DNA of 41,781 bases from a virus: IMG/VR virus record IMGVR_UViG_3300045988_102491, positions 1 through 41,781 of that record. One strand, written 5' to 3'. Under the pieces are notes generated by a model that did not search any database, was not told the origin of the DNA, and saw only the letters and a program-made list of their open reading frames with translations. Of the stretch, positions 3,381-31,736 are shown piece by piece (the first letter of the stretch is position 1; each line of letters opens with the position of its first letter). A program made the position numbers and the translations under genes.

Positions 3381-3797
3381 ATGAATGAATACGATACAAA
3401 AAAGATCTTTTCAAAAAATCTTAGTAGAGTTCTTTCTGAAAATGGAATGACTCAGGCTGAGTTAGCATCTGAAATGGGTGTTGCGGCATCTTCTGTGTCT
3501 GCTTGGTGCAATGGAGATAAAATGCCTAGAATGGATAAAATAGAGTGGATTTCCAAAAAATTTAATATTTCAAAATCAGAATTATTAGAAGAAAACCTTA
3601 TGCAACTGGTTCCTCCAGAGCAGAGCACCAGGGGCATGACCGAAGAGGAGCGGGAAGCGTATTACCGGGGTCTGCATAAAAAACAGCCCCCCGAAATGAT
3701 CGGAGGGCTGACAGAGGAAGATATGGAAATACTAAAGAGGTTTCGGAACGCATCTCCAAAAAAGAAAGAAGCAATCAGGATGCTTTTAGAGGAGTAA
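3381..3797 (+). CDS. CI-like XRE-family repressor
   Basis: 138 aa with N-terminal HTH (MTQAELASEMGVAASSVSAWCNGDKMP) and a C-terminal extension. It is divergent from a Cro-like gene. Confidence 0.8.
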   Translation: MNEYDTKKIFSKNLSRVLSENGMTQAELASEMGVAASSVSAWCNGDKMPRMDKIEWISKKFNISKSELLEENLMQLVPPEQSTRGMTEEEREAYYRGLHKKQPPEMIGGLTEEDMEILKRFRNASPKKKEAIRMLLEE

Positions 3798-4548: not shown

Positions 4549-5580
4549 TTGAAAGTTCCGGTCGCAAAAAAGCTCCCGTCCGGCTCCTGGCGGTGTCAGG
4601 TCATGGTGGACGGGCGGAGGGTGTCCGTAACAGGTCGGACGGAGAAAGAGGCAATCGCGGAGGCCATGCAGATCAAGGCCGGTATGCAGGAGGCAAAGAA
4701 GAGGGAAAAGCGCGTCACGGTAGACGAGGCCATACAGGAATACATGGACGCGGGGAGCAACGTGCTTTCCCCGGCAACTCTGAGAGGGTATGACATCATG
4801 CGGAGGAATCGCTTCCAAAGCCTGATGAAGCGGGATGTAAGGACGTTGACGCGCCTGGACATCCAGAAGGCGGTGAACTATGAGGCCGGGAAGGTGGCCC
4901 CGAAAACTGTCATAAATGCTTGGGGGCTTTTGAGGCCTGTGCTGAAGGACTACGGAATGGTGTTTGAGGGGATCAAGCTGCCTCAAAAGATCAAGAAAAA
5001 GAAAACCTATCTGTCTATGGACGAGATTACAAGGCTGATCGACGCGGCGGTGGGGGATGACTGCGAAATCCAGATAGTAATGGCCGTCTGGCTTGGCCTG
5101 AGACGGTCGGAAATCATGGGGCTATGCTGGGACTGCGTGGACCTGGAGCGCGGTACAATCGAGATCAGGAGAGCCATGGTGCCTGATAAAGAAAATAAGT
5201 GGGTCATAAAAGAGGGAGCAAAGAACGAGAGCTCTCAAAGAACACTGAAATGCCCGGCCTATATCATGGACAAGCTGAAAGAGATCTATCACGGACAGAC
5301 GGGAAGAGTATTCCAGGGATCGCCGGAGACGCTGCGGAAGCATGTCCACCAGGTGTGCAAGCTGGCCGGGATACAGGATACTACAGTTCACGGCCTGCGG
5401 CATGCAAACGCGGCTGTCATGGTGGCTCTGAACGTGGTAGACAAATACGCTATGGCTCGGAACGGCTGGACATCTGACTATACTTTCAAACAGGTGTATG
5501 CGTATGTGTTCCCGGAGGGAGCGGAGGAAACGGACGATCTGGTAAATTCTTTCTTTGAGAGCCGGATAGCAGGAAAATAA
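4549..5580 (+). CDS. int: Tyrosine site-specific integrase
   Basis: 343 aa with a TTG start and GGAGGTG RBS. Catalytic-type motifs are WLGLRRSEIMGL, HGLRHANA and a C-terminal FKQVYAYV. An N-terminal SAM-like/arm-binding style region is present. Confidence 0.9.
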   Translation: MKVPVAKKLPSGSWRCQVMVDGRRVSVTGRTEKEAIAEAMQIKAGMQEAKKREKRVTVDEAIQEYMDAGSNVLSPATLRGYDIMRRNRFQSLMKRDVRTLTRLDIQKAVNYEAGKVAPKTVINAWGLLRPVLKDYGMVFEGIKLPQKIKKKKTYLSMDEITRLIDAAVGDDCEIQIVMAVWLGLRRSEIMGLCWDCVDLERGTIEIRRAMVPDKENKWVIKEGAKNESSQRTLKCPAYIMDKLKEIYHGQTGRVFQGSPETLRKHVHQVCKLAGIQDTTVHGLRHANAAVMVALNVVDKYAMARNGWTSDYTFKQVYAYVFPEGAEETDDLVNSFFESRIAGK

Positions 5581-30280: not shown

Positions 30281-30588
30281 TGAAAAAGATCGCAATGATC
30301 GTCGAGGACATCCGGGAGGAGCTCAGAGGTGCTGAGCACTACGCCAAGCTGGCGACTCAGTACAAAATGGATGACGTTGATCTTGCCGACGCATACGCCT
30401 CCATGGCCTCGCAGGAGCTCTCTCATGTTGACTCTCTGCACTCCCAGGTCGTGCGTGTCATCAAAAAGCACAGGGCAGAGGGGAATATCCCTCCGGCTGG
30501 CATGATGGAAGTCTGGAATTTCGAGCATGAGCGCATGGTTGACAGCGTCGCTAAAGTCAAGATGCTTCTAGAAATGTACAAGAAATAA
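30280..30588 (+). CDS. Hypothetical helical protein (ferritin-like four-helix-bundle character?)
   Basis: GTG start 6 nt after GAAGGAGGG. EELRGAEHYAKLA and SQELSHVDSLH resemble rubrerythrin/ferritin-like helices, but the call is weak. Confidence 0.4.
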   Translation: MKKIAMIVEDIREELRGAEHYAKLATQYKMDDVDLADAYASMASQELSHVDSLHSQVVRVIKKHRAEGNIPPAGMMEVWNFEHERMVDSVAKVKMLLEMYKK

Positions 30589-30591
30589 AAA

Positions 30592-30620
30592 AGAGGGGGA
30601 ATCAATCCCCCTCTTTTTCT
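30592..30620. terminator. Bidirectional terminator shared by the convergent late (+) and early (-) transcription units
   Basis: agaggggga-atcaa-tccccctct with a T-run on the plus strand and an A-run upstream. The sigma gene stop codon lies in the loop. Confidence 0.75.
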
Positions 30621-31078
30621 TTTTGCAGCTCTGCCCATGCTTTTTTTGCGATACGGTCTATGGTCCTCTTTGACACACCCAGCTTGTCCGCGATCTGCTC
30701 CTTTGTTTTGCCACGGAGAAGGGAGTGGAGGACTATGTACTCTCGGCTGCGCCTTGCAAAAGCCGACCGGATTCTCTTTTCCAAATCCTCTTTGCTGTCC
30801 GCCTCTTCCGTTTCTGCTTCTGCATAATCCTCTGTCAACTCTTCCTGTGGCTTTGGCTGCCTGCGTAGGTAATCGATGATATTGTGTCGGATGCAGGTAT
30901 TTGCCAACGGCTCAAACGGTCGGTTTCCGTCCCAACGCTGTGCAGCTTCCCAAAGACCGATCAGGCCGCTCTGGAGTGCGTCGTCATCCTCTGCGCAGTT
31001 TGGTGATACAGACCTTGCCACTCTGTCTACCAGCGGCCTGTATCGCTCTACCATGGAATCGCTTTCTGATTTCTTCAA
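30602..31078 (-). CDS. Sigma-70 family (ECF-like) RNA polymerase sigma factor
   Basis: 158 aa. Region 2-like sequence is LQSGLIGLWEAAQRWDGNRPFEPLANTCIRHNIIDYLRR. Region 4 HTH is GKTKEQIADKLGVSKRTIDRIAKKA. TTG start. Confidence 0.75.
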   Translation of the reverse strand: MKKSESDSMVERYRPLVDRVARSVSPNCAEDDDALQSGLIGLWEAAQRWDGNRPFEPLANTCIRHNIIDYLRRQPKPQEELTEDYAEAETEEADSKEDLEKRIRSAFARRSREYIVLHSLLRGKTKEQIADKLGVSKRTIDRIAKKAWAELQKEKEGD

Positions 31079-31082
31079 TCTC

Positions 31083-31339
31083 TCACCCAGCCCGGAACAT
31101 CGGGCACTTCTTTACATGATATGTGCCTATCTTCACATACACGTTTTTCTTTTCAATCCACCGACTGACCAAGATTTCGTCTTTTTTACGCTCCACCCAG
31201 GCACCGGCTGAAAGGACCGGCTCCATGGGCACCCCCTTGATCCGTCGGAGGATGGAACGGCATTGGCACATTGCCAGCAGATGGTTTCAGTGATTCGAAC
31301 AGGTTTTCCCACGCCCTTCCTCCTCCATTTCCACCGCAA
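31083..31339 (-). CDS. Cys-rich small protein encoded in two overlapping frames; candidate -1 frameshift at A_AAA_AAG (31187..31181)
   Basis: The zero frame is 31339 (or GTG 31312 after GGAGGAGG)..31133. The -1 frame is open 31271..31083. A fused product of about 85 aa would carry ICWQC, GCPW and KKCPMF cysteines. Confidence 0.4.
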
Positions 31340-31736
31340 AAGCCAGTCTGCAAAGTGCGTGGCTTAAATGATCGTTGCTCTCGTCTCCGGCCAGCCACGC
31401 AAAGATATGTGTCAGTGCTCTTCCTACGTGCTCCTTGGCCGGAATCAGCTTGTAGTTGTTCTCTGGATACCCGTGAACTTCTCCGGCCTCATATCGCACT
31501 CTGGACATTGCCAGCATAGCTCTCGGCGGAAGCCACTCGGACCGGTACGGCCTATGGTGCTGCTTTCCGCCGCTCTCATTTGTGGTGATGGCGGTTTCTT
31601 TTGCAAGGCCGGATGTTGTTTCCGATGGTTCCCACATAGACGGAATAGATAGTGTGCCATCTTTGTTTTTTCTCTGTACACATTCTGCGCATTTAAAAGT
31701 TCCATCGTTTGCGCAGTTTATACAATTCTTCTCCAA
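31287..31736 (-). CDS. Zinc-ribbon plus DUF5664 / dATP-dGTP diphosphohydrolase-N-terminal-like domain protein
   Basis: TTG start after AAGGAG. The N-terminus holds CINC...CAEC. The C-domain [78 protein letters not shown] fits that family as I recall it. Confidence 0.55.

Follow-up and report, generated by a model that had tools for sequence, protein, structure and literature searches.

Two overlapping reading frames beside a phage sigma factor gene probably reflect a lineage-fixed one-base deletion in a Cys4 gene rather than a demonstrated programmed frameshift

Two small overlapping reading frames on the minus strand of a viral genome (the 41,781-nucleotide IMG/VR record IMGVR_UViG_3300045988_102491, analysed over its whole length and called the window below) meet at a dnaX-type A_AAA_AAG heptamer, and the original prediction was a candidate programmed −1 ribosomal frameshift joining them. 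Our analysis points to another origin of this layout: the split is probably a real one-base deletion, fixed in the window's lineage, in a four-cysteine (Cys4) gene that is otherwise a single open reading frame (ORF), and not a demonstrated programmed frameshift. The elements of the split gene are the following:

31133..31312, minus strand: zero-frame ORF with a GTG start after GGAGGAGG; 59 aa plus stop
31181..31187, minus strand: A_AAA_AAG heptamer in the X_XXY_YYZ phase of the zero frame (GTA AAA AAG ACG)
31083..31181, minus strand: −1-frame continuation; 32 codons plus TGA

Reading of the minus strand bore out both the position and the phase predicted for the heptamer (31187..31181), as well as a −1 frame that stays open to 31083, where it closes with the TGA at 31085..31083. 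The proposed start of the zero frame, a TTG at 31339 giving 68 aa, needed revision. Homologues P0001, P0002 and P0003 begin at the position of GTG 31312 (an ATG in L008), GGAGGAGG precedes this codon, and GTG 31312 is on this comparison most likely the start. With it, the zero-frame product comes to 59 aa and the fused product to 76 aa, instead of the roughly 85 aa first proposed. The zero frame encodes the N-terminal two-thirds of a Cys4 protein and then a non-homologous tail of 15 residues, while the −1-frame continuation encodes the C-terminal β-hairpin and the invariant Cys-Pro of the same family. Within the tail (31133..31180, minus strand), a Cys lies 20 residues past the PVPGW motif, a spacing within the range for the fourth Cys of short family members (17 residues in L028 and L074). 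This Cys is probably a coincidence, though the 59-aa product thereby keeps four Cys.

The case for a single ancestral gene comes from the homologues. Pfam and PHROGs scans of the fused and the zero-frame products matched no family. A search with the fused product in a collection of 5.8 billion proteins returned single-ORF proteins covering 84–100% of the query, and the proteins referred to in the text are these:

P0001: 86 aa, 88% identity to the fused product
P0002: 86 aa, 85% identity to the fused product
P0003: 76 aa, 67% identity to the fused product
P0004, P0006 and P0007: 75–130 aa, 47–52% identity to the fused product
P0005: the 62-aa −1-frame ORF as gene callers annotate it (DAF04447.1, MAG TPA Caudoviricetes sp.)

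All of these except P0005 carry both halves in one frame. Back-translated pattern scans added 79 viral and 13 genome loci, giving about 100 loci in total from IMG/VR and GTDB genomes; the genome loci belong to Flavonifractor, Pseudoflavonifractor, Intestinibacillus, Christensenellaceae and Clostridiales MAGs. Every fetched locus outside the window clone and L100 is a single ORF with the pattern CWxC...C.WS...PV.GW...Y.V..CP, and a profile search placed at least 208 clusters in the family. Some members are fused at their N terminus to HTH_3, HTH_23, HTH_7, sigma-70 region 4 or GcrA-like domains.

An alignment of 87 sequences identified C12, C15, C28, W30, S31, G39, W40, C70 and P71 as invariant, and since C70 is among them, the fourth Cys falls in the −1-frame half. 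The full Cys4 pattern of about 70–80 aa is found only in the fused product, which has every invariant residue; the four-Cys arrangement foreseen for that product coincides with the family's invariant C12/C15/C28/C70. The fold of P0003, modelled confidently by AlphaFold2 with the same alignment (pLDDT 87.7), consists of two short helices and then a long β-hairpin, residues 41–53 and 56–69. The frame break lies at the start of the hairpin, and the zero-frame product would, on this model, lose it (residues 41–69).

Sequence and fold searches against known structures gave little to place the protein. The PDB sequence search and the fold search returned no informative match, and BFVD matches were family members only, such as A0A8S5MNM8 (“Regulatory protein”). 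A blastn search with the 1.1-kb region found no match in the collection of cultured and deposited phages, and tblastn against deposited phages yielded no more than two gut phage records, both unannotated and matching at about 40% identity. The Cys4 family is thus uncharacterised and large, stems from phages of gut Clostridia, and is without a Pfam, PHROG or PDB counterpart. Its members presumably bind zinc.

Two other sampled members of the family are disrupted as well. At L100:2464-2884 (Ruminococcus MAG CALCRR010000131.1), a homologue is independently split elsewhere in the gene, at GAC AAA AAA AAA CGG TAG, which contains an A9 run; a run of A8 would restore ...NAVPDKKNGRGCEWS... in one frame. 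This run is long enough for transcriptional slippage, with assembly error or mutation equally possible. P0103 (48 aa; 3 contigs) is a truncated member, MMTICWACANAVPDADGERGCSWSREGKPVEGWVAERRDIRIQPKRPG, without the C-terminal half present in the L093-like protein, and its truncation suggests sporadic disruption of the family in several lineages.

The surroundings of the split gene bear on its history and on its possible role. The window is a temperate siphovirus-like genome that encodes both terminase subunits, small and large, and the portal on its plus strand and also carries the genes listed here:

3381..3797, in the window: HTH regulator
4549..5580, in the window: integrase
31287..31736, minus strand: gene with a dATP/dGTP diphosphohydrolase N-terminal domain, upstream of the split gene
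30602..31078, minus strand: sigma-70-family gene (regions 2 and 4), directly downstream of the split gene

An early/middle operon occupies the minus strand; its last genes are those for an HNH endonuclease, the dGTP diphosphohydrolase-like protein, the split Cys4 protein and the sigma factor, and it converges on a bidirectional terminator at about 30587..30619. The hairpin there is strong on both strands (13–14 bp), is flanked by A and T runs in the manner of an intrinsic terminator, and separates the plus-strand module, whose last ORF ends at 30588, from the minus-strand sigma gene. The diphosphohydrolase-like gene extends 26 nt into the split gene, covering its GTG start. If translated from TTG 31736, the diphosphohydrolase-like product includes a CxxC...CxxC segment near its N terminus; on sister contigs, gene callers chose a later start and hence a product of 116 aa. 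Downstream, the sigma gene begins with a TTG 4 nt past the −1-frame stop, as against 55 nt from the zero-frame stop. A terminase-based search for the host found only MAG relatives at no more than 72% identity (Oscillospiraceae, Eubacteriales, Ruminococcus), from which we infer a host in the Oscillospiraceae or a related group of Clostridia. The phage genome contains no tRNA genes.

The closest intact relatives were then compared with the window at the site of the break, where they read as follows:

L009 and L010 (closest intact relatives; 76 aa, same CPMFRAG end): GTA AGG AAG AGA AAA ATA TCT (V R K R K I S)
L006: GTC AGG AAA AGA AAA ATA
L007: GCC AAG AAG AAA AGA ATC
L008: GCA AGA AAA ACA AAG ATT

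At the heptamer position, the closest intact relatives have A_AGG_AAG or C_AGG_AAG and A_AAA_AAG appears only in the window's lineage, where the heptamer is derived (AGG to AAA). In L009, the same downstream sigma gene (97.5% amino acid identity) follows an intact 76-aa gene, indicating that the order of zinc-finger gene and then sigma gene is ancestral and belonged to an intact gene; the dGTP diphosphohydrolase-like neighbour upstream is shared as well. The fused product matches P0003, L009 and L010 in length. The window lineage differs from the rest of the family in its split into two frames, and its linker reads KKTK/KKDE as opposed to RKRK in the closest relatives.

The sequence around the break suggests where the base was lost. 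Alignments place the one-base gap at GACGA-AATC, 6–9 nt 3′ of the heptamer, and two further elements can be delimited:

31174..31177, minus strand: site at which loss of a base is more parsimonious, ACG AAA (A)TC, A4 to A3
31152..31190, minus strand: hyper-divergent patch, 46–58% identical to every relative by sliding identity, containing the 1-nt gap

With an A4-to-A3 loss, the ancestral protein would read VKKTKILV, matching RKTKI in L008, RKRKI in L009 and KKTKI in L034 (AAA AAA ACT AAA ATT); the zero frame of the window is family-like through VKKTK, and the −1 frame takes over at ILVS. Relative to L009, the alignment counts 7 substitutions for this placement and 10 for an A7 loss at the heptamer. 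Nucleotide parsimony would thus favour the A4-to-A3 site over an A7-to-A6 loss, in a patch too divergent for a firm decision, and this divergence is what keeps the A7-to-A6 placement in play. If A7 did lose a base, the in-phase heptamer is automatic (xxA AAA AAA Gxx becoming xxA AAA AAG xxx). Under either placement, neither the presence nor the phase of the heptamer is independent evidence for recoding. The patch itself (35–40 nt) is flanked on its 5′ side by sequence 92–100% identical to L006 and on its 3′ side by sequence 83–100% identical to L010/L009, which marks it as a mosaic junction; it could have come from an unsampled donor by conversion, or be the product of a complex templated mutation.

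We next consider whether the break exists in nature at all. It lies in an A-rich tract with A6 and A3 runs, the type of sequence in which indel errors are common, and a homopolymer miscalled in an intact gene was an obvious concern. The window, however, shares its A6 run and two-frame layout with eight further contigs, assembled from independent metagenomes (among them L001-L005, L101 and L109); these stem from different studies and assemblers, and they include a GenBank WGS record as well as assemblies from ENA and Logan. The exact 62-aa ORF is present on L001-L005, five contigs of separate studies; a metagenome scan added L101, and a cluster member added L109. Random sequencing error is excluded by this agreement across contigs, and an intact copy of the window's allele is absent from the 5.8-billion-protein collection, leaving next to no probability for an artefact of sequencing or assembly. 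Exact-pattern scans for the lineage-specific 3′ sequence found no match in IMG/VR or in GTDB genomes and a single contig, L101, in JGI/GenBank metagenomes, and they retrieved neither an intact sister allele nor a host genome. The possibility raised along with the original prediction, that a homopolymer error or pseudogenisation had divided one gene, is therefore upheld as regards the single gene, whose homologues are single ORFs, and discarded as regards the error, given the agreement of eight other assemblies.

Over the region, the carriers are 96.5–99.6% identical to the window (the figure for L005 includes a run of Ns), and their flanks differ from it by up to 2.6% (L002). SNPs among the nine carriers cluster in mosaic blocks, and only two fall in the gene, which gives no power for a selection test. 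The one at 31089 leaves the −1-frame protein unchanged; the one at 31172 (T>G, in L109) leaves the zero-frame protein unchanged and replaces L by V in the −1 frame. Past the lesion there is no decay in the form of stops or loss of invariant residues, with the −1 frame open to its native stop. Persistence in nine assemblies with diverged flanks fits a retained function more comfortably than a strongly deleterious lesion.

Such persistence raises the question of whether shifting at the heptamer has itself been selected, with A_AAA_AAG and a 3′ hairpin yielding a useful amount of the 76-aa protein. The level of shifting may then tune the zinc-finger protein against the sigma factor, or provide translational coupling into the sigma gene. 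Several features speak for selected corrective or programmed frameshifting: an efficient heptamer that is in phase, specific to the lineage and no more than two codons from the lesion; an intact −1 frame with all invariant residues; an allele found in nine independent assemblies with no intact sister; and a −1 stop that brings ribosomes to 4 nt before the sigma start. Corrective shifting on indels is, moreover, a recognised class of recoding (PMC5009743). We nevertheless consider this explanation unlikely, and its stronger form, in which the phage depends on recently evolved corrective −1 shifting and the derived heptamer and hairpin set both the dose of the zinc finger and its coupling to the sigma gene, less likely still. 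One objection is the want of phylogenetic depth, as all carriers amount to one clone. The alignment of homologues, named in advance as the refuting test, showed that the diverged members (about 100 loci, at least 208 clusters) are single ORFs in which neither the slippery site nor the two-frame layout is conserved.

The heptamer carries less weight than its match to dnaX suggests. The window contains 20 copies of AAAAAAG where shuffles predict 6.6, and A_AAA_AAG is in phase in at least four other genes, with instances on the plus strand in the HTH regulator (3398, 3758), the integrase (4566) and the small terminase (9063). None of those other in-phase heptamers leads into a meaningful −1 ORF, the −1 frames closing after 6–73 codons. 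By itself, the heptamer is not beyond chance, and the two-frame layout is meaningful because both halves are homologous to one protein family. Efficiency would also depend on the host: high efficiency of A_AAA_AAG needs a single tRNA-Lys, with the UUU anticodon, to read both AAA and AAG. Only about half of bacteria have a single tRNA-Lys (PMC5009743), and the probable Oscillospiraceae host may or may not be among them.

Candidate stimulators around the heptamer were the following:

31191..31194, minus strand: GGAG, 3 nt 5′ of the heptamer, part of the coding sequence of the invariant PVPGWS
31148..31174, minus strand: predicted stem-loop (4 bp, internal loop, 6 bp; −8.8 kcal/mol), starting 6 nt 3′ of the heptamer

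The GGAG is indeed where it had been reported, 3 nt upstream of the heptamer (31194..31191). Shine-Dalgarno (SD)-like elements that stimulate −1 shifting are spaced at 9–14 nt, however, and a distance of 3 nt is the +1 spacing (PMC5009743). In the 9–14 nt range there is no such 5′ stimulator; the closest sequence is a weak GGG 8–11 nt upstream, within the invariant PGW codons. The stem-loop is the better candidate at first glance, with the canonical 6-nt spacing and a z of about −3.2 against local shuffles. Set against this, it is weak, lies at the 19th percentile of 34-nt segments genome-wide, is ordinary for this genome, and is lowered to −6.8 by the SNP at 31172 in L109. The corresponding hairpins of intact relatives reach −5.3 to −7.3 kcal/mol, and for this reason the stem-loop is probably not an evolved stimulator. 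An Rfam scan at a permissive E-value found no frameshift element at the site, its weak matches all lying in the terminator (about 30590-30620). Unstimulated heptamers in E. coli reach at most about 10 times the 0.055% background (PMC4066793). Transcriptional slippage in bacteria is described on runs of about 9 A or T (PMC5009743), longer than the A6 run here. With weak stimulators, and with homologues that keep neither slippery site nor layout, the programmed dnaX-type frameshift initially proposed is unlikely.

Alternatively, the two halves could be made as separate, cooperating polypeptides, the N-terminal piece from GTG 31312 and the C-terminal piece from a −1-frame ATG at about 31227 or from ATG 31271. 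Gene callers do annotate the 62-aa −1-frame ORF (DAF04447.1) with ATG 31271 as its start, and the internal ATG, within CCATGG, is preceded at 5 nt by the SD-like string AAGGGGG. Both ATGs and the SD-like string are, however, forced by zero-frame coding (CQCAN, GSRGCPW) and present in intact relatives, and so provide no evidence of adaptation. The first 30 residues of the 62-aa ORF are out of frame and have no homologues, and the zinc site would have to form from two chains. Production as two polypeptides is, on balance, quite improbable.

Taken together, these observations are most easily reconciled by a one-base deletion that would have struck an A-rich, Lys/Arg-coding tract inside the hyper-divergent patch, at a recombination (mosaic) junction. 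Standard translation would then give the 59-aa product without the β-hairpin and the fourth invariant Cys, and a protein lacking both is probably inactive. The A_AAA_AAG would be a by-product of the A-rich tract, either the remnant of an A7 run or a sequence that chance put two codons ahead of an A4-to-A3 deletion. Slippage to −1 by a small share of ribosomes may yield a protein that is full-length or near-native, with KKDE for KKTK, a difference of two linker residues. We expect this slippage to be low-level, incidental and leaky suppression, and not an evolved, regulated frameshift. The phage would appear to tolerate a hypomorphic or dispensable gene.

Compared with known systems, the site resembles the −1 frameshifting cassette of E. 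coli dnaX in its identical in-phase heptamer, its stem-loop about 6 nt downstream and its G-rich SD-like string upstream. It departs from that cassette in other respects: the dnaX SD-like element lies about 10 nt upstream (9–14 nt), whereas GGAG here is 3 nt away; the hairpin is weak and occurs outside the frameshifted lineage too; homologues do not share the layout; and the dnaX shift truncates and creates a second functional product, whereas here the shift is needed for the only family-like product. A second likeness is to corrective frameshifting, as in the G-run mutants of the herpesvirus thymidine kinase (Atkins et al. 2016, PMC5009743), in that an indel lies in a homopolymer-rich tract of a viral gene. 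As in that class, the non-shifted product is probably useless, and a slippery sequence at or near the lesion could restore a little product. In contrast to that class, the indel here is not known to bring a selective advantage, and the presumed slippage level is taken from unstimulated heptamers in E. coli. The split gene also resembles the lineage-specific fs-genes of GeneTack (PMC3711429), with homologues that are single ORFs, a split confined to one clone, a lesion in an A-rich tract and a second, independent split of the family in the A9 run of L100. It is unlike ordinary fs-genes in its undecayed downstream frame, its geographically widespread allele and the position of the lesion in a hyper-divergent mosaic patch.

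For annotation, these results mean that the deposited 62-aa out-of-frame ORF (DAF04447.1) is not the meaningful unit, which is a frameshift-split 76-aa Cys4 gene. More generally, an indel in A-rich sequence can by itself leave an in-phase dnaX heptamer where two frames meet, and where conservation is lacking such a heptamer should not be taken for programmed frameshifting. The frameshift is an ordinary kind of event. The family that it interrupts is large, unnamed and confidently folding; HTH or sigma region 4 domains are attached to some of its members, and its genes often neighbour sigma or packaging genes. A link to transcription control is plausible in view of the sigma-factor neighbour and the HTH and sigma region 4 fusions; judged from such sequence contexts, this uncharacterised family is a candidate for definition as a new family whose role is related to transcription, and a model of it may be worth building. 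The split allele, as a widespread natural hypomorph or knock-out, could help to test what the Cys4 family does, and the family together with its natural split allele may prove more useful than the frameshift itself.
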